Shown: positions 6,512-21,099 of the stretch, one piece after another
Layout of the letters: each line of letters opens with the position of its first letter
How positions within the stretch are numbered: position 1 is the stretch's first letter
Assembly (NCBI GenBank): GCA_963675515.1
Contig: OY776328.1
Coordinates: 2,580,001-2,612,000 of the forward strand
Direction: 5' to 3'
Origin: Coprobacillaceae bacterium
Lineage (GTDB): Bacteria > Bacillota_I > Bacilli_A > Erysipelotrichales > Coprobacillaceae
DNA: 32,000 nt
Notes under the pieces: model-generated
The model's database searches: none
What the model saw: only the letters and a program-made list of their open reading frames with translations
Told to the model about the DNA's origin: nothing
Program-made: the position numbers and the translations under genes

Positions 6512-8413
6512 CTATTTCAGACCGGCGATTTGCGATTTGACCATTGCCACAAAATCGGCGAAGCTTACAGTGATCTGTTCCTGTTTGCCGTGTTCACGGT
6601 AAGTAACAGTCTTTTCGTCGCGCTCATTATCACCTAAAACCAGAATATAAGGGACTTTCTGGATTTGGGCGTCACGCATCTTCTTGCCAAGCTTTTCTTC
6701 CCGCTCGTCAAGTTCAACCCGGATTCCCTGGGCCTTGAGATTTTCCATTACTTCCTTGGCATACTCGCCGTGGTATTGGTTGTTTACCCCAAGGACTTTT
6801 ACCTGGATTGGAGCCAGCCAGGTCGGGAAATTTCCGGCATAATGTTCGATCAGGATTCCGATGAATCGTTCGATCGATCCATAGACAACGCGATGGACCA
6901 TTACCGGACGGTGTTTTTCCCCGTCTTCACCGATGTAGTTCATATCGAAACGCTCAGGCAGGTTGAAGTCAAGCTGGATTGTCCCGCATTGCCAAGTCCG
7001 GCCGATTGCATCTTTGATCTTGAAGTCCAGTTTGGGACCATAGAACGCACCATCACCAGGATTGAGGACATAGTCGATGCCCCGTTTTTCCAGCACGTTT
7101 TGCAGGGCGCTCTCCGCCTTTTCCCAGATCTCATCGGAACCTATCGCTTTTTCTTCCGGTTTGGTCGAAAGTTCGATATGGTAATCGAAGCCGAAGATAT
7201 CCTTGTAGAAATGGTCAATCAGATCGATCACGCCATTGACTTCCTGTTCTATCTGGTCAGGGAGCATGAAGATATGGGCATCATCCTGAGTGAAAGATCG
7301 AACCCTGAACAAACCATGGAGCGCTCCCGAGTATTCGTGGCGGTGCACCTGTCCCAGTTCTCCCACGCGCATCGGAAACTCCTTGTACGAGTGCAAAGCA
7401 TTCTTATAAACCAGGATCGATCCCGGACAGTTCATCGGCTTGATCGCGAAGATGTTCTCGTCGATCTCAGATGTGTACATATTTTCACGGTAATTGTACC
7501 AGTGACCCGATGTCTCCCAAAGATCCTTGTTCAACATTATCGGAGTCTTGATTTCCTGATATCCGGCTTTTTCATGTTCCTTGCGCCACAGGTTTTCAAG
7601 CTCATTGCGCACAATCATTCCCTTAGGCAGGAAGAACGGGAATCCCGGACCATATTCGGAAACGAAGAAAAGATCCAGGTCTTTTCCCAGTTTGCGGTGG
7701 TCGCGTTTGGCAGCCTCTTCCAGGAATTTCAGGTGGTTGTCAAGATCTTCCTTGGAAAAGAAGCTCACCCCGTAGATTCTCTGGAGCATCGGATTGTTCG
7801 AGTCCCCGCGCCAGTAGGCCCCGGCCAGTGACATCAGCTTGAAATGTTTGATTACCGAAGTAGCCACCACGTGGGGCCCCCGGCAAAGATCGGTGAATTT
7901 CCCCTGGCTGTACAGGGTGATTGTTCCGTCTTCAAGATTCTCGATTAGCTCACTCTTGTATGGGTCGTTTTTGAACATCGCCAAAGCGTCAGCCTTCGAT
8001 ACTTCGCTTCTTGTTATCTTCGCCCCTGCTGCGACAATCCGTTTCATTTCCTTTTCGATTCTAGGAAGATCCGCCTCGGTAATCAATGGATCGGTTTCCA
8101 CGTCGTAATAGAATCCAGTTTCGATATTAGGTCCCACCCCGAATTTGGCACCAGGGTACAAATTGGTGATCGCCTCTGCCATCAGATGGGCAGTCGAGTG
8201 GTTCAACACGTCGATTGCCTGTGCGTCATCCTTGGTGATCAGCTGCAAAGTCGCATCGTTTTCGATTGGCCGGTTGAGATCGACCACTTCGTCATTGACC
8301 TTCGCTGCCACGCACTTTTTCGCCAGTGAGCTTGAAATCGACTTGGCGATTTCCAAAGCCGAAGTTCCAGCTTCGAATTCTTTGATGTTGCCATCTAAAA
8401 ATGTGATTTTCAT
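6512..8413 (-). CDS. thrS: Threonine--tRNA ligase (633 aa)
   Basis: TGS-domain start MKITFLDG, class II aaRS motifs and full length. The ATG at 8413 is preceded by GAGGAGGAATTTT; the ORF-track start at 8494 falls inside the IS right end and was rejected. Confidence 0.95.
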   Translation of the reverse strand: MKITFLDGNIKEFEAGTSALEIAKSISSSLAKKCVAAKVNDEVVDLNRPIENDATLQLITKDDAQAIDVLNHSTAHLMAEAITNLYPGAKFGVGPNIETGFYYDVETDPLITEADLPRIEKEMKRIVAAGAKITRSEVSKADALAMFKNDPYKSELIENLEDGTITLYSQGKFTDLCRGPHVVATSVIKHFKLMSLAGAYWRGDSNNPMLQRIYGVSFFSKEDLDNHLKFLEEAAKRDHRKLGKDLDLFFVSEYGPGFPFFLPKGMIVRNELENLWRKEHEKAGYQEIKTPIMLNKDLWETSGHWYNYRENMYTSEIDENIFAIKPMNCPGSILVYKNALHSYKEFPMRVGELGQVHRHEYSGALHGLFRVRSFTQDDAHIFMLPDQIEQEVNGVIDLIDHFYKDIFGFDYHIELSTKPEEKAIGSDEIWEKAESALQNVLEKRGIDYVLNPGDGAFYGPKLDFKIKDAIGRTWQCGTIQLDFNLPERFDMNYIGEDGEKHRPVMVHRVVYGSIERFIGILIEHYAGNFPTWLAPIQVKVLGVNNQYHGEYAKEVMENLKAQGIRVELDEREEKLGKKMRDAQIQKVPYILVLGDNERDEKTVTYREHGKQEQITVSFADFVAMVKSQIAGLK

Positions 8414-8700
8414 AAAATTCCTCCTCAATTTGAACCTCCCATGACTTAAGTCACGGGATTCTTGGGAACAGAGCTTACTTGATGTATGGTGCATCCACCA
8501 TAATCAGCGGTTTCTCTTGTTTACCAAGCCATCCCCGTAGTCCCTACGGTTTAGTAATTATCTAGGACTGTGCTATTATGCGCAGTCCTTCTTTCAGGAT
8601 GTTCTTGCTCGCATTTATGTCCCTGTCATTGGTGCTGCCACAATTAGGACAAGCCCATTCCCTGATGTGGAGTGGCTTCTTGCCATCCTTGTGGCCACAT
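8410..8700 (-). ncRNA. Candidate omega RNA (reRNA) of TnpB: tnpB 3' end + right-end scaffold + flank-derived guide
   Basis: This is a positional inference from characterised IS200/IS605 elements. Hairpins are visible at 8535-8549 (CCGTAG/CTACGG), 8486-8501 (ATGGTG/CACCAT) and 8438-8457 (RE hairpin). The 5' boundary is not determinable by eye. Confidence 0.4.
8438..8457 (-). repeat. IS200/IS605 right-end (RE) subterminal hairpin
   Basis: Imperfect palindrome CCCGTGACTT/AAGTCATGGG, followed by AGGTTCAA and then the thrS SD. Confidence 0.7.
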
Positions 8701-9710
8701 CCATGGCAAATCTGGCTGGACTCATACCAACGGTCCACCTTGATGATTTCTCTACCATACCATTCAGCCTTGTAGATGAGCTTGTCCACAAATGCCGACC
8801 AGGATACATCGGATATGCTTTTAGCCAGTCTATGATTACGCAACATCCCTTTTGTGTTTAGGTTTTCGACACAGATAACATCGTGGTTTTTGATGATCTG
8901 GGTTGTCAACTTGTTCAAAAAGTCATTGCGTTGGTTCATTACTTTTTCATGAAGCCCTGCCACTTTGCGTCTTTGTTTCTGGTAGTTCTTTGCTCCAAGA
9001 AGATTGATTCCTTTGCTTTTGGCAAGGAGCGCCCGTCTTGACAGCTTTTTCTGTTCGCGGATAAGTTTCTTTTCCATTTGGTTGGTAAACTTATGATTAG
9101 CGACTTTTCTACCATTTGAAAATATCGCAAAGTCACGGATGCCAAGATCAATACCTACTGTCGAATTCGTTTTGGGCAATTGCTCGATCTTTTCTTCAAC
9201 AACAACGGCAATGAAGTATTTGTCACTGGGATTTTTCCGGATAGTCGCTTTAATGATCCTGCCTTTTATCTCCCGGCTCTTGGCGAATCTTACCAGACCT
9301 AACTTAGGCAGCTTGATCGACTTGCCAATTACGGCAATACTGTTGTTAACATTCTTGGTGGTGTAGCTTTGAACCGGATTCTTCTTGCTCTTGTATCGCG
9401 GGTGGCTGTTTTGCTTAGTGAAGAACCTTGCGAATGAATCGGAGAGATTCTTCACCGATGATTGAAGGGCAATGCTGTCTACTTCTTTTAGCCACTGTGT
9501 ATTTTCATCCCGTTTCATCTGAGGAAGCATGGCGGAGCAGGAATTGTAAGACAGACCCTTTCCAGTACCAGCATACTCCTCATTCCACAAATTCAAAAAG
9601 TGATTGTAGACAAATCGGGCACATCCGATCGTTTTACAGATCAGTATCTCCTGTTCACTATTAGGGTAGATCCTGAACTTGTATGCCTTATGGTGCAACA
9701 TCATCATCAC
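8562..9710 (-). CDS. tnpB: TnpB (IS200/IS605 OrfB) RuvC-like RNA-guided endonuclease
   Basis: N-terminus YKFRIYPN. RuvC contexts GIDLGIRDF, VCVENLN and NDRDINASKNI. Zn ribbon CHGCGH...CPNCG. Full length with no frameshifts. Confidence 0.92.
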   Translation of the reverse strand: MMMMLHHKAYKFRIYPNSEQEILICKTIGCARFVYNHFLNLWNEEYAGTGKGLSYNSCSAMLPQMKRDENTQWLKEVDSIALQSSVKNLSDSFARFFTKQNSHPRYKSKKNPVQSYTTKNVNNSIAVIGKSIKLPKLGLVRFAKSREIKGRIIKATIRKNPSDKYFIAVVVEEKIEQLPKTNSTVGIDLGIRDFAIFSNGRKVANHKFTNQMEKKLIREQKKLSRRALLAKSKGINLLGAKNYQKQRRKVAGLHEKVMNQRNDFLNKLTTQIIKNHDVICVENLNTKGMLRNHRLAKSISDVSWSAFVDKLIYKAEWYGREIIKVDRWYESSQICHGCGHKDGKKPLHIREWACPNCGSTNDRDINASKNILKEGLRIIAQS

Positions 9711-10116
9711 CGGATTTCTTTTTCTGACTTTTTATATAATCTCTTATTTGCTGTTGAGTATTATCGCTAACAGTAGCAACAAAGTAACTAGGATTCCACA
9801 AATGACCTTTCCATAGACGACTTTTAAGCTCAGGATGTTGCTTAAACAAGAATCTTGCAGATAACCCTTTGAATGCTTTTACCATACTGGGAATATGGTG
9901 TTGGGGCTTGCAATCGATAAGCAAGTGGATATGGTCCTTATCCGATTCCATTTCAATGATATTTATGTCATTATCAGCTGCAATCTTAGCCAACAATTTC
10001 TTAACATCATCGTCAACTTGACCAGTCAAAATATCGTGACGGTATTTCACACACCAGACCAGATGGTATTGAATTGAATAGACATAACCACGTCCGTAAT
10101 TAATATCAGACATCAT
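9688..10116 (-). CDS. tnpA: TnpA Y1 (HUH) transposase, IS200/IS605 family
   Basis: YHLVWCVKYR, HUH motif DHIHLLI and catalytic Tyr context NPSYFVATV. Overlaps the tnpB start by 23 nt. Confidence 0.92.
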   Translation of the reverse strand: MMSDINYGRGYVYSIQYHLVWCVKYRHDILTGQVDDDVKKLLAKIAADNDINIIEMESDKDHIHLLIDCKPQHHIPSMVKAFKGLSARFLFKQHPELKSRLWKGHLWNPSYFVATVSDNTQQQIRDYIKSQKKKSGDDDVAP

Positions 10117-10249
10117 TTATCACCTCACATACATTGTAACATATGGTTGCTGAAAATTACAGCTTTAAAGCACTTTTAGTCCATAATTTTTAACAATATA
10201 TGTAGGCCATAGAACACAGTTGAAAAGAGTCACAAGAAAGTCGATTCAT

Positions 10250-10269
10250 CTCCATGCTAAAGTCACGAG
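10250..10269 (-). repeat. IS200/IS605 left-end (LE) subterminal hairpin
   Basis: CTCGTGACTTTAGCATGGAG is similar to the RE hairpin and lies about 15-20 nt downstream of the T-box terminator U-tract. Confidence 0.65.
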
Positions 10270-10285
10270 TGTTCTCGACCAGATA

Positions 10286-10490
10286 ATAAAAAGGCCTCCG
10301 TCAAAGGACGAAGACCGTGGTACCACCTTTATTCGCGGCTTAAAGCCGCCTCAAGACCTTAACGCAGTCAACGGCCAGGCTTTTACTGGCAGCTAATAGG
10401 GAGTACCAAACAAGAGCCGCCAAGATTTTCACCAACCATCTTTTCGCTGTTCCGACCTGCTTGTTCAACGTGTCCTATATTATCGCTTGT
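10286..10490 (-). promoter_or_regulatory. T-box riboswitch leader (tRNA-Thr sensing, belongs to thrS)
   Basis: Minus-strand elements: AGCGA (AG bulge), distal loop GGUGAAA, stem III GCGGC-UUUAA-GCCGC and T-box motif AAAGGUGGUACCACGG (10315-10330). Terminator GGUCUUCGUC-CUUU-GACGGAGGCC + UUUUUAUUAU lies at 10286-10316. The specifier loop GGUACUCC contains ACU (Thr). Confidence 0.85.
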
Positions 10491-10496
10491 AATTAA

Positions 10497-10524
10497 ATCA
10501 TATACTTTTATTGGTTTTTGTCAA
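10497..10524 (-). promoter_or_regulatory. Sigma-A type promoter driving the T-box leader
   Basis: TTGACA (10519-10524), 16-nt spacer, TATGAT (10497-10502) on the minus strand. Confidence 0.65.
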
Positions 10525-11282: not shown

Positions 11283-11513
11283 GTCACTACCTCTTTCTAT
11301 TAGATACGAATCAATAATAACCTAAACTTTCGCAATAAACAATACTAATTTAATTTATAGCGCGATACAATTTCTTGTATTCATACACCATCTTATCTAT
11401 ATCTTAACATTTTTTGTTAAATACGCAAATTATATTGGCATTATCTTCACTATTTCTTCATTATGTTTTTCTACCGGGCACATTTTCGGGCACTATATCC
11501 CCTATATAATATA

Positions 11514-11566
11514 AAGAGCTACACGGCCATTTGATCCATTTCTAACCAAATAGCCGTATAGCTCTT
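11514..11566 (-). terminator. Long imperfect hairpin, possible terminator of the minus-strand orphan operon
   Basis: AAGAGCTACACGGC (11514-11527) pairs with GCCGTATAGCTCTT (11553-11566) in 13 of 14 positions, plus a 5-bp inner extension. On the minus strand it is followed by TATATTATAT. It lies about 240 nt past the 165-aa gene stop, so the assignment is uncertain. Confidence 0.3.
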
Positions 11567-11804
11567 AAAGTGATAATTTACAGCAACAAAATGCTTAAGA
11601 ATAGGATAAAGGTATCAATTAATTCGCAAATAGTATTACTAAACTGAATTAATAAACTCTTCAATATTCAAGATTAGACACTTAAACCATTTATGTAAGA
11701 CATACCTTTAACCTTAAATTAATGTTTGTTTCACAATTATCATCGTGGGAAAAAGTTTTCTAGGTATTTCTGTCTGTTTTAGGTAAATATTGATTTCTAA
11801 TGTT

Positions 11805-12302
11805 CTAAGACCATTCTCCTAATTTGGCTATTACTCTCGCATAGATTTCAGACTCATTATTGTCCTGATCAGTAATTTTTACAGGATAAGATGTTAAAGT
11901 TGAATAGTCAAAATTAGGTTGTTCACTAAAGACAAAAAAATCATAGTAATCACCCGGATTTAGTTCAATGTAACTAGATAATATTTCCTCAGTATAAATT
12001 GAATTGTTTTCAAAATCAATCAATCTAGAATCTTCTATGTTTTCTAAGTTAATATAGAAATTATAATCCCCGTTATTAACTTCTAAGTCATCACTAGAAA
12101 CTACTAGCATGCAAATATATACATTTTCATCACTGAATTCAATGTTCAATTCATTGTCACCATATTTATATATGTACATTGAAGCACTCATACTGGAAGA
12201 ATAATCTGTAATAGCAGCTTCCTTGTCTTGAGTTAAAAAATATATACAAATAATTAATAGAGCAAAAACCACAATTATTGCAGCTTTTTTTGTTTTCTTC
12301 AA
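11805..12302 (-). CDS. Orphan membrane-anchored, highly acidic Asp/Asn/Tyr-rich protein (165 aa)
   Basis: TTG start 9 nt after an AGGAGG SD. N-terminus MKKTKK + TM helix AAIIVVFALLIICIYFL. No family recognised. Confidence 0.6.
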   Translation of the reverse strand: MKKTKKAAIIVVFALLIICIYFLTQDKEAAITDYSSSMSASMYIYKYGDNELNIEFSDENVYICMLVVSSDDLEVNNGDYNFYINLENIEDSRLIDFENNSIYTEEILSSYIELNPGDYYDFFVFSEQPNFDYSTLTSYPVKITDQDNNESEIYARVIAKLGEWS

Positions 12303-12338
12303 TATATTTTGCCTCCTAATGATACATTATTACTTTAA

Positions 12339-12476
12339 TCACTGATAGTATACATAAATATATGTTTCATCTTCATCCGGGACATCAATTGTACCAGTGT
12401 AAGTATTTTGAAGTGTATAGTACCCAATTGCTGTATCATAGTAAGTACTAGTGATTGTAACAGATATATTATAATG
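12339..12476 (-). pseudogene. 3' fragment of the secreted beta-hairpin protein gene split by ISL3
   Basis: It continues the frame of 15068-15477 across the 8-bp TSD: ...HYNISVTITSTYYDTAIGYYTLQNTYTGTIDVPDEDETYIYVYYQ*. The stop TGA is at 12339-12341. Confidence 0.75.
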
Positions 12477-12508
12477 GGCTCTTCGCTGTTTGGTGTGGGT
12501 AACTGCCA

Positions 12509-13747
12509 TTAAGCCTTTGCGACAACCGCTTCAAGATTGAGCTTGCCACACACCAAATATATCAGTGTTTTGAAGTATTCGTCATTCCGAAATCCTCTTG
12601 CCCTGGTCTTGACGTTTTGGATAATACTGTTCATTCCTTCTAGAATTGCATTGGTGTACCTGAACCGGAAATAGTTGAGAATCTCCTCCCAGTGATTACG
12701 GATTAACTTCGCGAATTTCTTCATTGGTTCGAGTCTGGAATGCATCATCCATGAGCACAGTTTTTTGAGTCCTCTGGTTGCCTCTTCAACGGTGTCGCTG
12801 GATTCATAAACATCTTGTAGTGCGAGTCGCATATTATAGGCTCGGGCTGTCTTAAGGTTTAACTTGGCTAAATCAAATTTCTTCTGCTTTTGATTCTCGG
12901 TCAAGTTACTCTCATTCTTTAACCAGATGTACTTGGTTTTCTTTAATAAGAAATTGGTGCGCACTTCATCTTTACGGACTTTGTCTACTGCCTCGTTGGC
13001 GTGTTTTACTACATGAAATTTATCGATAACAGTATTGCTGTTTTTGAAATTTTCTTTGATACCTTTTTTGAAACCTAACGACATGTCGCAAGTAATGATG
13101 TTGATAAGATCAGGATCACCGCCATGCTCCTTGAAGTCCACTACGAAATTATCCACTGTTTTTGAGTCTTTTCCTGGTGTTACGTTGATTACCTTGCGCT
13201 TGGCAAGATCAACGGCAACGGTGATGTAGTTGTGGCCCTTCTTGCTTGTTTCGTCGATACCTATGGCTGTAACATCTGAATAATCTTCTAGTTTACGAGA
13301 CTCATTGACGTAATGCTTGATGAAGCGCCAAAGCCGTGTGTCATGTTCATCGATCATTTGAGCAATGCGAGAAACCGGAAGATGCTTAGCCAACTCTACT
13401 ACCCAACCTTCAAAAAGCAGGGTAAAACCTGATCCCGGTCTTGCCCATGGCACTTTAACAGTTTGGGGACCATGATTATCGCAATTTACACGTGGCAAAT
13501 CAGCATGGATGAATGTCTTGTACTGGAAGAAATTAAGATGTCTCCAGGTCCTTTTGGTTGTATCGTATGCAGTTCCACTTTCTTTACAACCATCAACCGG
13601 GCAAGGGAATTTACCACCCTTGGTAAAACTGATATTTATATGCAATTCCATGCCCTTGTCGGTATCCAGAAAATTGACATCGGAAACAGTCCAAGGTTCA
13701 CCTAAGTTAAGAGCTTTTGTAAATAAGTCCAAAGTATCCATAATCAT
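12509..13747 (-). CDS. ISL3-family transposase (412 aa)
   Basis: The N-terminal Zn-finger-like region (PCPVDGCKESGTAYDTTKRTWRHLNFFQYKTFIHADLPRVNC) and overall layout are typical of ISL3 transposases. The ORF is intact. Confidence 0.9.
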   Translation of the reverse strand: MIMDTLDLFTKALNLGEPWTVSDVNFLDTDKGMELHINISFTKGGKFPCPVDGCKESGTAYDTTKRTWRHLNFFQYKTFIHADLPRVNCDNHGPQTVKVPWARPGSGFTLLFEGWVVELAKHLPVSRIAQMIDEHDTRLWRFIKHYVNESRKLEDYSDVTAIGIDETSKKGHNYITVAVDLAKRKVINVTPGKDSKTVDNFVVDFKEHGGDPDLINIITCDMSLGFKKGIKENFKNSNTVIDKFHVVKHANEAVDKVRKDEVRTNFLLKKTKYIWLKNESNLTENQKQKKFDLAKLNLKTARAYNMRLALQDVYESSDTVEEATRGLKKLCSWMMHSRLEPMKKFAKLIRNHWEEILNYFRFRYTNAILEGMNSIIQNVKTRARGFRNDEYFKTLIYLVCGKLNLEAVVAKA

Positions 13748-13894
13748 TACCTCGTTATCGTTAGTAGTTTATGGATACAATTTTAGGTCATTTTAACTAG
13801 AAGCACAAGAGGCTATACTGGATAGGTTACAATAAATTAGACAAGATTATAAGGACATGATAAAATCTTGTTAAATTTGTGGAGGATATTCAAA

Positions 13895-14188
13895 ATGACA
13901 AAACGCAGACCTAAACGTACTTACACCGATGAATTCAGAATCAAAATGGTTCAACTTTACAACAATGGGAAACCCAGAGCGGAAATAATCCGTGAATACG
14001 ATTTGACAGCTTCAGCGTTCAATAAATGGGTTAAACGCTTCAATGACACGGGTTCGTTTACTGAAGCCGACAATCGATCAGATCATGACAAGGCGCTTAT
14101 CAAGCTCCAAAAAGAAAACGAACGACTGAAGATGGAAAATGATATTTTAAAGCAAGCGGCGCTGATAATGGGACGAAAAGACAAGTAA
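13895..14188 (+). CDS. IS3-family transposase OrfA (HTH, leucine-zipper end)
   Basis: GGAGG SD lies 9 nt upstream. The sequence reads MTKRRPKRTYTDEFRIKMVQLY...LKKENERLKMENDILKQAA. Confidence 0.9.
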   Translation: MTKRRPKRTYTDEFRIKMVQLYNNGKPRAEIIREYDLTASAFNKWVKRFNDTGSFTEADNRSDHDKALIKLQKENERLKMENDILKQAALIMGRKDK

Positions 14189-14223
14189 TCTTTGCCAATA
14201 AACACAAATACTCTATCAGCGCT

Positions 14224-15003
14224 ATGTGCAAAGTCTTGAAAATCTCTCGGGCAACTCTCTACTACAAACCCAAAGGGCGTAAAGTGGATTCGAAGCTTGA
14301 AGATGAAGTAATAAAATCATTCAAAAACAGCAAGAAGAATTATGGAACACGCAAGATAAAAGATGACTTGGATGATTTAAACATGGTTGCCAGCAGAAGA
14401 AAAATTGCTCAAATCATGGACAAATACGGCTTGATTAGTAAATACACCATCAAGCAACGACCAAAGCATTATGGCAAAGTAAATAATGACGATATTGAAA
14501 ATATGATCAATAGAAAATTCCAAGCAGAGCGGCCAATGCAATATTTAACCAGCGACTTGACCTACATCAAGGTGGCTGGAAAATGGAACTATATTTGTCT
14601 GATAATTGATTTGTACAATCGTGAAATCGTTGGTAAATCTAGTGGTCAAAACAAAGACGCCAACTTGGTTATTAAGGCATTAAACGATATAAAAAGTGAT
14701 CTCAGTGATGTCGAGATATTTCATTCAGACCGAGGATCGGAGTTCAAAAACGAGATGATTGATGGGATATTGGCATTGCATGGAATCAAGAGATCGTTGA
14801 GTGCCAAAGGAAAACCGATTGATAACGCGGTATCAGAATCAATGTATAAAATACTCAAAACAGAATTCGCATTCAATCGACAATTCCGCAGTATCGACGA
14901 ATTGTCATTGGAACTGTATGATTATGTCAACTGGTTCAACAACAAAAGGAAGCATGGGAGCCTTAATTACAAAACACCCGTACAATACAGGCTGTCCTTA
15001 TAA
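14224..15003 (+). CDS. IS3-family transposase OrfB (DDE/RNaseH catalytic domain), probably made as an OrfAB fusion by -1 frameshift
   Basis: OrfB is in the -1 frame relative to OrfA. That frame is open back through an A AAA G slippery motif at 14176-14180, reading KRQVIFANKHKYSISAMCKVL. DDE contexts are LTSDLTYI, HSDRGSEF and NAVSESMYKILKTE. Confidence 0.9.
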   Translation: MCKVLKISRATLYYKPKGRKVDSKLEDEVIKSFKNSKKNYGTRKIKDDLDDLNMVASRRKIAQIMDKYGLISKYTIKQRPKHYGKVNNDDIENMINRKFQAERPMQYLTSDLTYIKVAGKWNYICLIIDLYNREIVGKSSGQNKDANLVIKALNDIKSDLSDVEIFHSDRGSEFKNEMIDGILALHGIKRSLSAKGKPIDNAVSESMYKILKTEFAFNRQFRSIDELSLELYDYVNWFNNKRKHGSLNYKTPVQYRLSL

Positions 15004-15067
15004 AAATTGTCTAAAAAAGTGTTGACTATCCATACTCCTGCTTACCCATAGTAAACAGCGAAAGGCC

Positions 15068-15477
15068 TTATAATGTCTTACCAAAGCCTTAAATCGTAAC
15101 TTAGAATTTCTAGATGAATCCGCTGGAATTTCAGTTCCAATTTCAGATGAAGTGGATACACTAGTACCATAAGTAATACCAAAAGAAGCACTTAAATCTG
15201 GCTTCATTATGGTTGAAACTGTAGCAGACAGAGTGGTAGACGATTCAACAGTAACGGATGTAGTCACAGTATACTGTGATGCTTTTACCCAATTTTCCGT
15301 TAGCCATTCATATTCCCAATAAGAATATGATAGATTACAATAATTTACATCTGCACTTGTCGATATCAATCCCCCTGACATTGGTTGAACTTGCATGGCA
15401 TTTACTTCAGCAATGTTTGAAAGCGAAATAAACATTACTAAACCAGCAACTTACAATTTTTAAAATAGTTTCTTCAT
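15068..15477 (-). pseudogene. 5' fragment of the secreted amphipathic beta-hairpin protein gene, with two in-frame TAA codons in the signal peptide
   Basis: The ATG at 15477 sits 7 nt after a G8 SD. The signal peptide reads MKKLF*KL*VAGLVMFISLSNIAEVNA, followed by a Ser/Thr-rich mature region. The gene is truncated by ISL3 at the TSD. Confidence 0.75.
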
Positions 15478-15484
15478 TTTAATT

Positions 15485-15492
15485 CCCCCCCC
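15485..15492 (-). repeat. G8 homopolymer serving as the Shine-Dalgarno of the secreted-protein gene
   Basis: A run of 8 C on the plus strand lies in an otherwise AT-rich island, 7 nt upstream of the ATG at 15477. Confidence 0.8.
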
Positions 15493-15575
15493 TTTTATTT
15501 TTTAGCAAATAACATTTTTGTACAATTTACCTCACCAAGACGATTAAGCTCCAGAAAATCGCTCCCACATGTTAT

Positions 15576-15604
15576 ATTATACACATTTAACTTAATTTTC
15601 ACAA
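15576..15604 (-). promoter_or_regulatory. Strong sigma-A type promoter of the secreted-protein operon
   Basis: TTGTGA (15599-15604), 17-nt spacer, TATAAT (15576-15581) on the minus strand. This gives a 5' UTR of about 90 nt. Confidence 0.6.
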
Positions 15605-15650
15605 GTGTTTAAGTTTTTTTAGGCTTATTTCAAACACCCCGCCACTAGCA

Positions 15651-15712
15651 TCAGTCAGTGAAATTATAAAGATAAATCAAGGACGATGGGAGATTGAAGA
15701 ATCCTTTAGAAT
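15651..15712 (+). pseudogene. IS4/IS1634-like transposase gene remnant, part 1 (5'-truncated)
   Basis: Reads ...EIIKINQGRWEIEESFRI up to the TSD of the inserted element. There is no upstream transposase sequence, and the left limit is approximate. Confidence 0.65.
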
Positions 15713-15740
15713 CCTAAAAGTTAGATAACCTGTACTCAAA

Positions 15741-17525
15741 TCATAACCCCGATTTTAGCCCAAGTTTTTCAATAAACATGTTGTCTCTCTTTGTGATTTC
15801 AGTAGTCCACCGCTTGGCTTGTAACGCTGAAGATATTTCAACTCCTTCGATGGCATCAAACCATTGAAGTTGCAAATATATTGGCGTATTATCAAGCCAA
15901 CTTTTGAGTTTCTTTTCTTGATCCAGGTTTACTTTCAGGTCATGGTCATGATTACCGTTTGGTACACCAAGCGACAACTTCATTTTTCTAACAGCTTCGC
16001 TATAGTATTCGTAGTAGCATAAAGCTATGAATTGTACAAACATTCTACCGCGAAGGGTTTCTGCGTCCCATACCCTGATTCGCATACTATCGGCATGTTG
16101 CTTGGATGAACGGAAATATCCCTCGATATGCTCGCGTTTTCTATACTTTGAAAGTGCAACAAACGTTTCTTTTTCTTTACTGGAAACCAATGTGAAGTAC
16201 CCGTGGTATTGCTTGGCTTCGGCACATGCCTTTTCGTTGAAGCTTATTACCGTCTTCTTGCCCCAATTCCTGATGATCAGATACTTCTTCACCTTTTTTT
16301 GCGCCGCATCATTTAAATCACCTACTGGCGTTCCGTCCTCAAGTCTATTTTTAAGAGCGAGCAATTCCCGCTCAAATGCCTGATCTTCATCAACCTTTCG
16401 GGTAGTGCTGCAGTATATATGGAGATACACGCGACGGGTAAAGGTTTCTTCCTCACCTTGGGCAGCTCCAGTCTTTTTATTGGCATATTTACGTATCTTG
16501 GTGAAGTCACGCATGAGCGTAACCGTGATTCCACGGGTGGTTGGGTCATATGGACAGACGCTTGAAAGTCGATCTAAATCTTTTAGGTGACTGTCGATTT
16601 GAGACCTGATCCATTTGAGACCTGGCTTGGCCAGAGTGATAAAATCAAAATGGGCCTGGTACATTTTAGATATGTTCTGTTCAGAATAATAGCCATTGTC
16701 TGTTATTATTTCTGCGTCTGACACCCCAAGTGCCAACAGTTGGTTTAATGCATTCTCGACCGCCAACATGTCAGGCAAATCACCCGGTTGCTTAGTAAAT
16801 GCGATGGGCTGCCTTTTATCGATTGAATAGAGTGCAACATATTTAACTGTCTTTAAGCCATCACCGGCCTTATTGAAACCGTACCTGGCTTCTAACTGGT
16901 TCTCTGAGTAAGCGGAAAAAGTCGTTGAATCATAAGCGATACCGGAACCACCATTCAATGCTTCACACCGGCATTTGAAATAGTTCTGCTGCAAATTTTC
17001 GTCAAGCCCCACATCTTTAAAGAGCCGGTGGTAAATCTCTTCGGAGATGCCCTCACTGTAAGGCAAAGGATGATTGTATTGCCAGGTCGCTATTCCAGGC
17101 AGGCTTTGCCCGTCTGATGCAAATAGATATCTAGCCAAGGATATGATTTTTTGTGCAGTCCCCGAATCGGTATTTGCATATATGGCAGAGTCTATTCCTG
17201 AGGTCTTACCTATATGGTCTATGATGTTCATCATTCCCACTCGGTTACGCGATGCGGACATTTGAGGGCTCAAAGGAACGTGTTTTTCAGACACTTCACT
17301 CGACACAATTACAGACTTTTCCGTCTTTTGTGTTCGTTTTGGTCGTGTTGGGACTGAAATTTCTGAGCCTTTTGGAATTTTGGACAACAACTTTGTCGAT
17401 AGCACTCTGTTATATTTTTTTACTGGATCATACATGGTTTTTCGTTCAAGAACGTAGATATCACCGTTCTTTTGTGGACTGTGGATAATGCGGGTTTTAA
17501 TTTCACCGGATGATTTTGCAGGCAT
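15741..17525 (-). CDS. IS4-superfamily (IS1634-like) DDE transposase, 594 aa, apparently intact
   Basis: The ATG at 17525 lies 8 nt after a GAGGTG SD. Motifs include YDSTTFSAY, ITDNGYYSEQN and an exact Y(2)R(3)E(6)K signature in YRKREHIEGYFRSSK. Confidence 0.85.
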   Translation of the reverse strand: MPAKSSGEIKTRIIHSPQKNGDIYVLERKTMYDPVKKYNRVLSTKLLSKIPKGSEISVPTRPKRTQKTEKSVIVSSEVSEKHVPLSPQMSASRNRVGMMNIIDHIGKTSGIDSAIYANTDSGTAQKIISLARYLFASDGQSLPGIATWQYNHPLPYSEGISEEIYHRLFKDVGLDENLQQNYFKCRCEALNGGSGIAYDSTTFSAYSENQLEARYGFNKAGDGLKTVKYVALYSIDKRQPIAFTKQPGDLPDMLAVENALNQLLALGVSDAEIITDNGYYSEQNISKMYQAHFDFITLAKPGLKWIRSQIDSHLKDLDRLSSVCPYDPTTRGITVTLMRDFTKIRKYANKKTGAAQGEEETFTRRVYLHIYCSTTRKVDEDQAFERELLALKNRLEDGTPVGDLNDAAQKKVKKYLIIRNWGKKTVISFNEKACAEAKQYHGYFTLVSSKEKETFVALSKYRKREHIEGYFRSSKQHADSMRIRVWDAETLRGRMFVQFIALCYYEYYSEAVRKMKLSLGVPNGNHDHDLKVNLDQEKKLKSWLDNTPIYLQLQWFDAIEGVEISSALQAKRWTTEITKRDNMFIEKLGLKSGL

Positions 17526-17540
17526 TTCTAGCACCTCACT

Positions 17541-17572
17541 TTGAGTATATATTAATTATAATATATACTCAA
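17541..17572. repeat. Perfect 14-bp-stem palindrome abutting the transposase SD
   Basis: TTGAGTATATATTA-ATTA-TAATATATACTCAA. Confidence 0.85.
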
Positions 17573-17675
17573 ATAAAAATCAACATAAATCCAGTAAAAT
17601 AAAGGGTTTCAGGCCTATTTGAGAGAGAATATTTGTACTCATAATGATTTGAGTACATGAAATCAAACTTTTAGG

Positions 17676-17983
17676 TTAGAATAATGAAAACTGAATTTAA
17701 AGCAAGACCCGTTTACTTGGAAAGACAAGATCGGATAAAGGCACACTTCTTGGTATGTTATCTATCATTGGTGATATTCAGAATACTTGAAAAGAAATTA
17801 TCTGAGAAGTACACCGCAGGGACAATAATTAAGACATTACGCAACATGAACTTCAAACACTATGACGGTTACGGATACATCCCAACTTATACCAGAACCA
17901 ATCTGACCGATGAATTACACGATATTTTTGGCTTTAGGACCGACACCCAAATAGTAAGTGAAAAAAATATGAAAAAAATTTAA
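17676..17983 (+). pseudogene. IS4/IS1634-like transposase gene remnant, part 2 (C-terminus)
   Basis: Removing the insert and one TSD copy restores RWEIEESFRIMKTEFKARPVYLERQDRIKAHFLVCYLSL..., with an R(3)E(6)K signature. The 3' IS terminus was not located. Confidence 0.75.
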
Positions 17984-18036
17984 AAAAAAAGTTAGAGCAT
18001 AGAAAAAATACTACATTTTTCATCAAATCAAAAAAA

Positions 18037-18072
18037 CCGGAAACCTTTTGTGTACAAGGATTTCCGGGTTTT
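18037..18072 (+). terminator. Rho-independent terminator
   Basis: CCGGAAACCTT...AAGGATTTCCGG hairpin followed by GTTTT and preceded by A7, so it could act bidirectionally. Confidence 0.6.
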
Positions 18073-18144
18073 AGCTATTGATTAAGTGTCAAAGACAGGA
18101 TTTTATCATGACTATCTTAAAATTAAAAGAAAGGAATGATAATT

Positions 18145-18853
18145 ATGGCAATTTCAAAACGCGGTGACGTCTGGCAGGTGAGCTTCAGATACAAGGACCG
18201 GTACGGTCGCCACAAGAGATACCGCAAAAGTGGTTTCAAGAGGCAGAAAGATGCGGCCAACCACGAAACGAAGATGAAGAACGAACTGCTGGACACCGGA
18301 ATCATCTACCAGCGCAAGAAAATGACAATCAACGATGTCTGGGACGAGTTCAGCAAGAATGATCATACTCTGGCCATCTCGACTAAAGAAAACTATGAAA
18401 TGTACTTCAACAGGCATATTCGTAATAGTATCAGGCAAACATATATTGATACTGTCGACTACAAACTCATGCAGGACTTTTTCGCCGACCTAGGTCGCAA
18501 TAATCCAAAGTCTACCTGTGATGGTGTATACCGGGTCTGCAATAAGCTCTTCAAGTACGCATATAACCTCGAATACATCCAAAGGCTACCATACACATCA
18601 ATGGTGATAAAAGGCCGCCCTAGAGCGAAAAAACGCAAGGAACATATAATCTCACATGAACAGTATCAGGAGATATGCGACTTCATCAGAAATTCTTACC
18701 GGATCCACACCCCAAGACGGCGTTCGGCTTTGATAGCTGTTGAGCTTGGATATTATACCGGGATGCGTATTGGGGAGATCCTCGCACTTGACAAGGATGA
18801 TTTGGACTTCAATCTGATGCAGATTAACGTGGACAAGTCGCTGGCTTATTTAC
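18145..18853 (+). pseudogene. int: Tyrosine recombinase (phage/ICE-type integrase), 5' part, split by an IS
   Basis: Arm-binding type N-terminus MAISKRGDVWQVSFRYKDRYGRHKRYRKSGF, a core-binding domain and YTGMRIGEILAL (catalytic Arg). It ends at the TSD ATTTAC. Confidence 0.85.
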
Positions 18854-20632
18854 CCTGGATTCTCGGCCACTCATAACGATGTAGGAACCGGTACATTCAG
18901 TGCTTCATAGATCTCATTTTGCTTAGCCAAAATCTCACCTATTCTTAGCGAATGGCCTGGATCTTCGAAACATTCGATCACATCAAGTTTATCAAGTAGT
19001 CGTGACATGGTGTATTTGTCATATGGTTTTGCTTCCTTAATCTTATGATCGAGATGAGAAATCAGTATAAGCGCTACGAATTACGCAAATATCTTACCTT
19101 CAAGACTACGTTCGGATGAAACAAGCAATCTTCTTAGGTTGAGGCGCTCTTTTAGATTGCCAAAACCTTTCTCAACCACATCCTTCATCCGGTATAGATG
19201 CAGGGCTGTGAAGGCGTCCATCTTCTCGTTGGAAATGAGTGCGAAATACCCTAGATACCGTCTGGCTTTACGGATTGCTTCTTCGTTGTAGGTTACGGTT
19301 ATGCCTCTCTTGGGTGACTTCTTGACTTCGAAGAATTCAGCGTATGCCTTTTCGTGGGAATCGACTCGTTTGCCTTCCTTAAGTTCCTTGTATAATCTGG
19401 CGATACGTCTATCAAATGCAGACTCTTCATCAGCTCCTTTGTCGATGCTGTAGTAATAATGGATATAAATCCTGCGTTTGCCTTTGATGACATCACCTTT
19501 ATAAGGGCGTTCTTGGGAATAGTTCCAGTCGGTTGCCACTGTATATCCATAGGTGTTTATGGATTCATCGAAGTTCATGAACATCCGGATATCATCGTAT
19601 ACGAAATCAAGGTTTTTCTTGATGAAGGAAAGCGAAAGCTTGACGCCGACAAGGAATTTAATGTGCTCGCGGTATAGGCCATTGATGTTCTGTTCCGAGT
19701 AGAAACCTCGATCCATAACGAACTTGGTCTTACCAAACCCAAGGATGTCGAGATCTTCAAGCAAATGCTTCACGGTTTTTGCATCAGGTATGTTGCCCGC
19801 AAGCTTGCGATAGTAAAATGGCAGACCTGATTTTTCTCCTAATACAAGCAACAAATTCAACTGTGGCAGATCATCACTTTCCTTGTTCTTGCCATACTGC
19901 ACCTGAGCAAGTGTTTCTAAGTAGCTTGAGATGCTTGTGCTGTCATACGCCCAGTACTCATCTTCTACACGACGCTTTGCCTGTAGGCGGAAGAATTTAC
20001 TGATCTGGTCATCGGTTATTTTCGAAAACAGTTCACTGCTCCTAGGCGAAGTGATATCTTCCCCATAAGGATGCTTATGGGTATGGTGCCATTTTTCAAA
20101 ACGGTAAAGAGGAGTGTTGTCCTCCAGGATCAGGTAAAAAGCAATTGACAGCAACTGTTTATAGATTTCCGGGAAACAGGCGCGAAGATCAGCAGTTAGT
20201 CCCAATTCTTCGGAAAATGATTCCAACAGGTAAGTCGCGCCATAGTACATGTGCCTTGAGCTAGAAGCAACAACCGGACCACGTTTGGCTGGAGCAGCAG
20301 GCTTAGCCGGTTTATCTTTTCTGCACCTACCATCAGTTGGAACAATCTCACCGGTATCGGTATCTACCCGGCCAATAAGTTTCCGCTTGCACCGAGACTG
20401 TTGTTTTTCCTTGTCCCAATGGTACGTAGCTTCGTATGCGTATGTAATACCTGAGCGTTTATCGTACTGCTTTACTATTGCCATATAGCTTTGCCTCGTT
20501 ATGTGTTTTCTTAAGCAAATTATAACACATGACGATAAAATGTTCAAGCGAATACCGCAAAAAACCTTATAAAATCAAGGTTTTTTGCAAACTTGGAATT
20601 GCAGATATCGTTACGAGTTCCGAGAATCCAGG
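18854..20632 (-). mobile_element. Second IS4/IS1634-like IS (1779 bp) inserted in the integrase gene
   Basis: IRs are CCTGGATTCTCGG..ACTC.TAACGAT at 18854- and the reverse complement of -20632. 6-bp TSD ATTTAC lies at 18848-18853 and 20633-20638. Confidence 0.9.
18871..20484 (-). pseudogene. IS4/IS1634-like transposase with a single in-frame TAA (19081-19083)
   Basis: Reads MAIVKQYDKRSGITYAYE..., YDSTSISSY, VMDRGFYSEQN and YRMKDVVEKGFGNLK. After the TAA the same frame stays open for 69 more codons (FVALILISHL...VPVPTSL*), ending 17 nt from the IS tip. Confidence 0.8.
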
Positions 20633-21021
20633 ATTTACCAAGGACAAAGGAGCTCATAATAAAATCACCAAAGAGTGCATCATCGGCTGCCAAGATTCCT
20701 CTACCAGAAGAAATCAAAGACGATCTGCTGGAATGGCTAGAGATATGCCCGACCACTTACCTGCTTTGCACCAACGACCTGGATTACATCAGACCAACGT
20801 CACTGATGAACTTTTTCTCATACATGTCCAAGCACATAGGATTCCCTTTCCACTTCCATATGCTCCGGCATACATTCGCGACAACACTCTGGCGAAACGA
20901 TGTCGATATCAAGTATGCTCAAAGGCTCCTGCGGCATGAGAATTACAGCACAACAATGGACGTCTACACAGAGATAGAAAACGAAAATTTAAACGATATT
21001 ACAAGCAACCTGAAACGCTAG
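20633..21021 (+). pseudogene. int: Tyrosine recombinase, 3' part (catalytic C-terminus)
   Basis: Reads PRTKELIIKSPKSASSAAKIPLP...HMLRHTFATTLW...LLRHENYSTTMDVYTEI (H-x-x-R, H and Y). Joining it to 18145-18853 minus one TSD copy gives an uninterrupted 363-codon ORF. Confidence 0.85.
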
Positions 21022-21054
21022 TGGACACAAATTGGCCACAATTCACAACTCTAT

Positions 21055-21087
21055 AATAAAAAATGGCTAAAATAGGCCATTTTTTTG
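21055..21087. terminator. Bidirectional terminator between int and the 79-aa gene
   Basis: A-run, ATGGC-loop-GCCAT hairpin, then T7. Confidence 0.55.
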
Positions 21088-21099
21088 CTATACACAACA

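Follow-up and report, generated by a model that had tools for sequence, protein, structure and literature searches.

In the insertion sequence (IS) ISDra2 of Deinococcus radiodurans, TnpB binds an omega RNA made up of the 3' end of tnpB, the right end of the element and about 16 nt of flanking DNA, and cleavage requires both a transposon-associated motif (TAM) and a match to the guide, with the cut falling 15-21 bp from the TAM (Karvelis 2021). The omega RNA is produced by TnpB out of the mRNA that encodes this protein, by 5' processing (Nety 2023), and its coordinates in ISDra2 have been described (Nakagawa et al., PMC10097598). In Geobacillus, cleavage of the donor joint left by TnpA excision leads to higher retention of the transposon, the TAM of GstTnpB2 is TTTAT, and interference assays showed no activity for HpyTnpB of IS608 (Meers 2023). 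Here we describe an IS200/IS605-family element that separates a T-box riboswitch from thrS, the gene for threonine-tRNA ligase, by 1.86 kb in a Coprobacillaceae bacterium (contig OY776328.1, positions 2,580,001 to 2,612,000; this 32,000-nt stretch is the window, and all positions below refer to it). On the minus strand, the order from upstream to downstream is an rluB-like gene, a promoter, the T-box, the IS and thrS (Table 1). The element is very probably a complete, apparently intact IS605-group IS of the ISDra2/ISGst2 type that carries a TnpB-omega RNA guide module.

The element is unnamed and of a well-characterised kind, being nearest to ISDra2 in the architecture of its protein and RNA and to ISGst2 in its TAM. 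It shares with ISDra2 the gene order tnpA to tnpB, a TnpB that aligns from end to end and agrees in its D/E/D triad and CCCC zinc finger, the right-end shape ...GAAT-hairpin-(G)AGGTTCAA, and a guide, predicted in our case, formed by the flank directly beyond the right end. The TAM of ISDra2 is TTGAT, whereas that of the present element is presumably TTTAT, and the ISDra2 TnpB has 408 aa and a disordered C-terminal domain that is missing from the 380-aa protein encoded here. ISGst2 of Geobacillus stearothermophilus, the source of GstTnpB2, likewise has a Bacillota host, is of the IS605 type and uses the TAM 5'-TTTAT (Meers et al. 2023), although retention was shown experimentally for that element and is predicted here, and the two are likened by description. 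The 'peel and paste' transposition of single strands, a right end of TCAA and GAAT located 5' of the hairpin foot are points of likeness to IS608 of Helicobacter pylori, which differs in having TTAC as its target and an inactive HpyTnpB.

Boundaries and proteins of the element

The ends of the element are defined by the thrS loci of close relatives (L026-L030, with ThrS proteins 95% and 91% identical), in which rluB, the T-box and thrS are all present without the IS. In these five loci TTTAT is joined straight to ATTGAGGAGG, which gives an empty site of the form TTTAT/ATTGAGG (the slash marks the junction). Written out further, the junction reads ...CCTTTTTAT/ATTGAGGAGGAAT..., its upstream side also being written as ...GGCCTTTTTAT/ATTGAGGAGGAAT..., and in a longer context it reads ...GACGGAGGCCTTTTTAT/ATTGAGGAGGAATATTATG. 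BLAST alignments of the IS-free L026 and L030 loci to the window are interrupted at 10286 and 8429; from these breaks and the empty-site junctions, the element occupies exactly 10285-8430. Comparison of the occupied and empty sites revealed no target-site duplication, with the IS lying directly 3' of TTTAT.

Other copies of the IS agree with these boundaries. Similarity to six of them ceases exactly at the right end, ...GGTTCAA at 8430, and not upstream of 8460, which confirms the right end that the first-pass annotation had assumed. The copies in L025 (89% nucleotide identity), L002 (79%) and L020 (70%) can be aligned from about 10293-10276 to 8430 and end in ...GGAGGTTCAA, and those in L032 and L033 stop at the same point. 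TTTAT stands at the identical register in all six copies with a readable left flank. The metagenome contig L033 (1860 bp) consists of TTTAT followed by the IS through GGTTCAA and nothing more; since the assembly broke there, as expected for a multicopy repeat, this contig marks both ends independently. Self-BLAST of the window disclosed no second copy of the IS, and the sole relative found in phage and plasmid collections was from Paenibacillus larvae (72% identical). None of the related thrS loci seen carries the IS, so that among them the insertion is unique to this genome.

The features expected of the IS605 group are present, namely a Y1 TnpA, motif-specific insertion with neither a duplication nor terminal inverted repeats, and similar imperfect subterminal hairpins at both ends. 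The left-end DNA guide includes AACA, which presumably fits TTAT by the pairing rule of IS608. The insertion left the T-box terminator and its T-tract intact. Another copy of the element (L025:2395-2425) lies downstream of a gene for a major facilitator superfamily transporter and directly after a hairpin and T-tract of the form GGCAGA-TTGA-TTCTGTC-TTTTTAT. Because that copy, like the one in the window, follows a hairpin and TTTTTAT, the comparison suggests that the T-tracts of terminators are natural and frequent landing sites for this TTTAT-specific family.

Both proteins of the element appear intact. TnpA matches the Pfam family Y1_Tnp over profile positions 2-121 of 121 (E = 1.1e-42), and its translation contains HIH (the HUH motif) and the tyrosine of NPSYF. 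TnpB, which had been described from its motifs as full length with its RuvC contexts and CxxC...CxxC ribbon in place, proved to be so: it has the Pfam domains HTH_OrfB_IS605, OrfB_IS605 and Cas12f1-like_TNB, and its residues 2-372 align with the ISDra2 TnpB structures 8bf8/8exa/8h1j (E = 5.3e-88). In that alignment, the triad D186/E280/D362 (GIDLGI, VCVENL and DRDINAS) falls on D191/E278/D361 of ISDra2 TnpB, and the zinc-finger cysteines C333/C336/C352/C355 fall on C331/C334/C351/C354. TnpB is thus presumably an RNA-guided RuvC nuclease.

The host contig (2,881,239 bp), which also encodes the ThrS protein P0121, contains no fewer than 10 TnpB paralogues that are distinct and 380 aa long, along with at least seven TnpA variants. 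The TnpB paralogues P0001, P0002, P0004, P0006, P0007 and P0241-P0245 are full length. These 10 host paralogues, which are 91-97% identical to the protein from the window, make up 12 aligned TnpBs together with P0003 and P0008 from elsewhere, and none of the 12 departs from D186, E280, D362 or any of the four cysteines; the catalytic triad is hence free of substitutions both here and in at least 10 host paralogues. Judged from such sequence comparisons, the IS belongs to a proliferated family under purifying selection.

A conserved RNA scaffold beyond the tnpB stop codon

The non-coding tail 3' of tnpB is 131 nt long. The first-pass annotation had noticed two perfect 6-bp hairpins in it (8549-8535 and 8501-8486) in addition to the right-end hairpin (8457-8438) and had suggested a folded RNA. 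All three hairpins are present, and the suggestion holds up in the form of a scaffold. A 291-nt RNA fold has a z-score of -4.45, and none of 200 shuffles was equally stable. We compared 24 homologous loci from Erysipelotrichaceae, Bacillaceae, Paenibacillus, Enterococcus, Ligilactobacillus and others, across which the 124 nt at 8553-8430 are conserved. For this alignment, RNAalifold predicted a 5' hairpin, a CUUGG/CCAAG helix, an AGAG/CUCU inner helix and a hypervariable hairpin. Pairing was retained in 96% of cells as compared with 27-53% in slid-partner controls, double-sided (compensatory) changes affected seven pairs (36 cells), and the observed covariation score was reached by none of 500 shuffles. 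The L032 locus contributes a third type of pair (G-C) in stem 1.

When seven other copies were used to build a covariance model, with the window excluded, the model matched 8553-8430 over its full length (121.9 bits, E = 4.8e-25) and had no other strong match in the 32 kb. Scanning with covariance models had been proposed as a check; the model made from other copies recovers the scaffold, and Rfam holds no family that matches it. The scaffold ends at the transposon boundary, 8430, and between the tnpB stop codon, upstream, and the conserved part there are about 10 nt (8554-8564), so that reading frame and scaffold do not overlap in this subfamily. As the TnpB of the window is without a C-terminal domain of the ISDra2 type, the scaffold is located beyond the stop codon rather than inside the open reading frame (ORF). 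By its conservation and covariation, the tail is a scaffold of RNA type, and it is homologous to the ISDra2 omega RNA.

Counted back from the guide, the layout coincides with that of ISDra2 at the stem-4 tetraloop (-20 to -17), GAA (-32 to -30) and the 3' strand of stem 2 (-35 to -32). The strands of a putative pseudoknot, UUC (-5 to -3) and GGGAU (-106 to -102), are also at their ISDra2 positions and are invariant among the copies. The same features match an ISDra2-like element of D. aquaticus, which differs in that its ORF stops less than 10 nt short of the right end. Two departures from ISDra2 are the local hairpin that forms stem 1 of the window and an additional inner helix, AGAG/CUCU, located between stem 2 and the variable stem 3. 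An Enterococcus small RNA, Ref70, gave a weak hit on the minus strand at 8477-8555 (21 bits, E = 1.4), which raised the idea that Ref70 might be an omega RNA of Enterococcus; it was dropped as a chance hit, with no Ref70 match even at E 0.01 in the Enterococcus loci L014, L019 and L022.

An alternative explanation for the structured tail is that it acts as a signal at the level of DNA only, consisting of the TnpA hairpin and right-end sequences, or that it is a transcription attenuator. The subterminal hairpin and the GAAT and TCAA motifs reportedly serve as TnpA signals in elements of the IS608 type, and the scaffold transcript is itself a prediction. Conservation and compensatory changes, however, reach about 95 nt upstream of the hairpin into stems 1, 2 and 3, which TnpA would not need, and it is only on the tnpB-sense strand that numerous G-U pairs are allowed. 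In its 3' part, moreover, the layout coincides with the ISDra2 omega RNA solved by cryo-electron microscopy, and no terminator-like site was found in the tail. With these observations taken together, we regard this explanation as highly improbable.

The predicted guide, its target and the state of this copy

Since the guide always consists of the DNA adjoining the right end of the element, here it spells the thrS leader. The flank at 8410-8429 had been proposed as a guide that covers the thrS Shine-Dalgarno (SD) sequence and start codon, and this is accurate as to the right end and the SD region: a 16-nt guide covers the SD region and ends just before the thrS ATG, and a 20-nt version would include ATGA. 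That the guide corresponds to the SD sequence of thrS is a by-product of the insertion site and not a dedicated function. The TAM, from the flanks of the copies, is presumably TTTAT as for GstTnpB2. When the window is searched for TAM plus guide, the resident junction is the sole match; it has TTCAA in place of TTTAT, and because of this replacement thrS should not be targeted by the element it carries. The predicted target is instead the empty site, in the form of either the scarless donor joint after excision or an IS-free allele. TTTAT followed by the guide sequence is the empty site seen in the sister strains, except that guide position 14, in the TAM-distal part, is mismatched. In the thrS 5' untranslated region (UTR), the minus strand at window position 8416 reads GGAATTTTATG here and GGAATATTATG in all five relatives.

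By analogy with the family, TnpA would move the element as single-stranded DNA and insert it 3' of TTTAT without duplication. An omega RNA, if processed as its homologues are, would be cut from the tnpB transcript and comprise the scaffold of about 120 nt (8553-8430) and about 16 nt of read-through flank. The TnpB-omega RNA complex would then recognize TTTAT and the 16-mer, a combination present only where the IS is absent, and the cut, 15-21 bp from the TAM, would lie in the thrS start region. The element would be restored by repair from the sister chromosome that carries the IS, as in the homing or retention model.

The position of the guide over the thrS SD sequence raises the question of whether the module has been domesticated, with TnpB and its omega RNA repressing thrS under RNA guidance, or modulating its translation, in the manner of TldR proteins. 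Repressors derived from TnpB exist, their guides are complementary to the promoter or 5' region of a gene, and the scaffold probably lies within the thrS 5' UTR transcript. TldRs, however, are nuclease-dead and have lost both the RuvC residues and the transposon context, whereas the RuvC triad is intact here, and tnpA and both ends of the element are present. At least 10 near-identical mobile copies in the host genome, an insertion that is unique to this genome and a DNA target without a TAM likewise speak against such a role, which we consider scarcely credible.

Several findings weigh against an intact element with a functional guide module. Rfam, searched with the window at gathering thresholds, has no family matching the scaffold, with only noise at relaxed thresholds, and a search of 17 related loci returned nothing relevant, only tRNAs and rli28. 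Stem 1, as a local hairpin, cannot be mapped onto stem 1 of ISDra2, and the pseudoknot lies beyond the reach of a covariation test because both of its strands are invariant. Part of the conservation has a cause other than RNA, as the right-end hairpin doubles as a DNA signal for TnpA. The RNA, its ends and cleavage by the complex are predictions from homology, and intact motifs do not guarantee an active TnpB, given that HpyTnpB of IS608 was inactive in such an assay. Finally, the left-end hairpin of the window copy has a private 1-nt deletion of the T of GTC in the 3' arm, such that it reads GAC-TTTA-G.C where all six other copies (L001, L002, L020, L025, L032 and L033) read GAC-TT[TA]A-GTC, with the loss of two loop-proximal pairs. 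This deletion might impair excision and make homing moot at the thrS locus. Weaker recognition by TnpA and lower mobility may follow from it, unless the missing T is an error of sequencing.

It is possible that the deletion identifies an immobilised or decaying copy, in which a block to TnpA excision has fixed the IS in place and left a nuclease with no local donor joint; such a copy could serve other copies through its TnpB protein only and not through its guide. The altered arm (GAC-TTTA-G.CATGGAG) fits this explanation, as does the finding that the IS is in no related thrS locus seen, with no sign of its moving in and out. Formation of a bulged 6-bp stem nevertheless remains possible, no damage is seen in the left-end DNA guide, TAM, right end, tnpA or tnpB, and the deletion itself might be an artefact of the sequencing. 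We think it rather unlikely that this copy is immobilised, and favor an intact IS with a TnpB-omega RNA guide module.

Table 1. Positions of features at the thrS locus and in the upstream segment of the window.
Feature	Position	Strand	Basis or remark
rluB-like pseudouridine synthase gene	11282-10554	minus	
Promoter-like site of the T-box/thrS leader, TTGACA-16-TATGAT	10497..10524	minus	Consensus scan; sigma-70-like, 11/12
T-box leader	10301..10492	minus	Rfam RF00230, 74.7 bits, E 9.5e-16; gathering score 93
T-box terminator hairpin GGTCTTCGTC-CTTT-GACGGAGGCC, then TTTTTAT	10316-10293	minus	Terminator scan
TTTAT, insertion target and presumed TAM, inside the T-box terminator T-tract	10286..10290	minus	Empty sites and left flanks
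IS200/IS605-family element, 1856 bp	8430..10285	minus	Left end 10285, right end 8430
Left-end DNA guide GAGAACA and subterminal hairpin CTCGTGAC-TTTA-G.CATGGAG	10250..10276	minus	Hairpin at 10250-10269
Candidate extended -10 for tnpA, TGtTACAAT	10133..10141	minus	Relaxed scan, consensus match only
tnpA, Y1 (HUH) transposase, 142 aa	9688..10116	minus	Pfam and motifs
tnpB, 380 aa	8562..9704	minus	Pfam and alignments; ORF open from 9710, start at 9704 from database gene call
Predicted omega RNA scaffold, 124 nt	8430..8553	minus	Almost wholly 3' of the tnpB stop
Scaffold stem 1, hairpin CCGTAG-GGA-CTACGG	8549-8535	minus	
Scaffold strand GGGAU of the putative pseudoknot (-106 to -102)	8535-8531	minus	
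Scaffold stem 2, CUUGG with CCAAG	8528-8524 with 8465-8461	minus	Long-range helix
Scaffold inner helix, AGAG with CUCU	8517-8514 with 8473-8470	minus	
Scaffold variable hairpin	8507-8478	minus	Extends ATGGTG-GATG-CACCAT, 8501-8486
Scaffold stem 4, the right-end hairpin CCCGTGAC-TTAA-GTCATGGG	8457-8438	minus	
Scaffold 3' end, GGUUCAA	8436-8430	minus	
TTCAA, transposon-encoded right-end cleavage-site motif	8430..8434	minus	Fills the TAM position of the resident junction
Predicted 16-nt guide ATTGAGGAGGAATTTT	8414..8429	minus	Flank beyond the right end; 20 nt would reach 8410
thrS SD sequence GAGGAGG	8426-8420	minus	Within the predicted guide
thrS, threonine-tRNA ligase, 633 aa	6512..8413	minus	Pfam; 100% identity to database protein P0121; ATG 8413-8411
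ISL3 transposase	12509-13747		In the ~9.7-kb extra segment
rve (IS3-like) integrase	14224-15003		In the ~9.7-kb extra segment
Two DDE_Tnp_1 transposases	15741-17534 and 19081-20547		In the ~9.7-kb extra segment
Truncated phage-type integrase	18136-18876		In the ~9.7-kb extra segment

Transcription across the element and its significance

The T-box leader is kept upstream of thrS in the IS-free relatives as well. Its RF00230 score is below the gathering score, and for that reason default thresholds fail to report it. By eye, a possible ACU (Thr) specifier can be read within the T-box stretch ...GGUACUCCC... Inside the IS, a terminator scan found no terminator on the minus strand, and neither strict nor relaxed consensus scans found a promoter near the right end; the only promoter-like sites on this strand of the IS are the extended -10 before tnpA and a weak site at about 9126. 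As there is neither a terminator in the IS nor a promoter-like site near its right end, transcripts of thrS probably start at the T-box promoter and/or the tnpA promoter and reach the gene by reading through tnpA, tnpB and the omega RNA. Antitermination at the T-box would conversely feed transcription into the IS.

One consequence of this arrangement may be a coupling of the IS to thrS, in which starvation-driven expression of the IS is combined with a shared transcript for thrS and the omega RNA and with limited escape. Were this so, uncharged tRNA-Thr would lead through antitermination to expression of tnpA, tnpB and the omega RNA, and transposition and homing would respond to amino-acid starvation. 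In that event, the sole source of thrS expression would be the 3' portion of a transcript that has the omega RNA as its 5' UTR, and because the guide is the SD sequence, binding by TnpB and trimming of the guide would compete with translation of thrS. Escape mutations in the donor joint would be constrained, since the homing target overlaps the SD sequence and start region of an essential gene, and the thrS leader would be an unusually 'addictive' insertion site. We regard coupling of this kind as doubtful.

A second feature of the window is a segment of about 9.7 kb (11353-21089) that is absent from L026 and L030 and lies between the side with a 79-aa ORF and an iron-containing alcohol dehydrogenase gene and rluB. 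Several transposase and integrase genes are located in it (Table 1), and overlapping BLAST segments suggest that it is flanked by an 18-bp repeat (11352-11335 and 21107-21090).

Current understanding of these systems is unchanged by the locus; its T-box and essential-gene context is a curiosity, and the biology of TnpB and the omega RNA is otherwise that of the textbook. What it adds is a well-delimited element of the ISDra2/ISGst2 kind, with exact ends, a probable TAM of TTTAT, a 380-aa TnpB and a scaffold of about 124 nt outside the ORF, from an Erysipelotrichaceae-like genome in which there are at least 10 copies. Compact TnpBs for which TAM and scaffold are defined can serve as starting material in screens for genome editing. 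Because a matching empty site exists in sister strains, the locus is also a clean natural example of the logic of the donor joint. An IS with a riboswitch on one side and an essential gene on the other is, moreover, tolerated here, and it offers a system in which to follow the interplay of read-through, omega RNA processing and the expression of the gene downstream.

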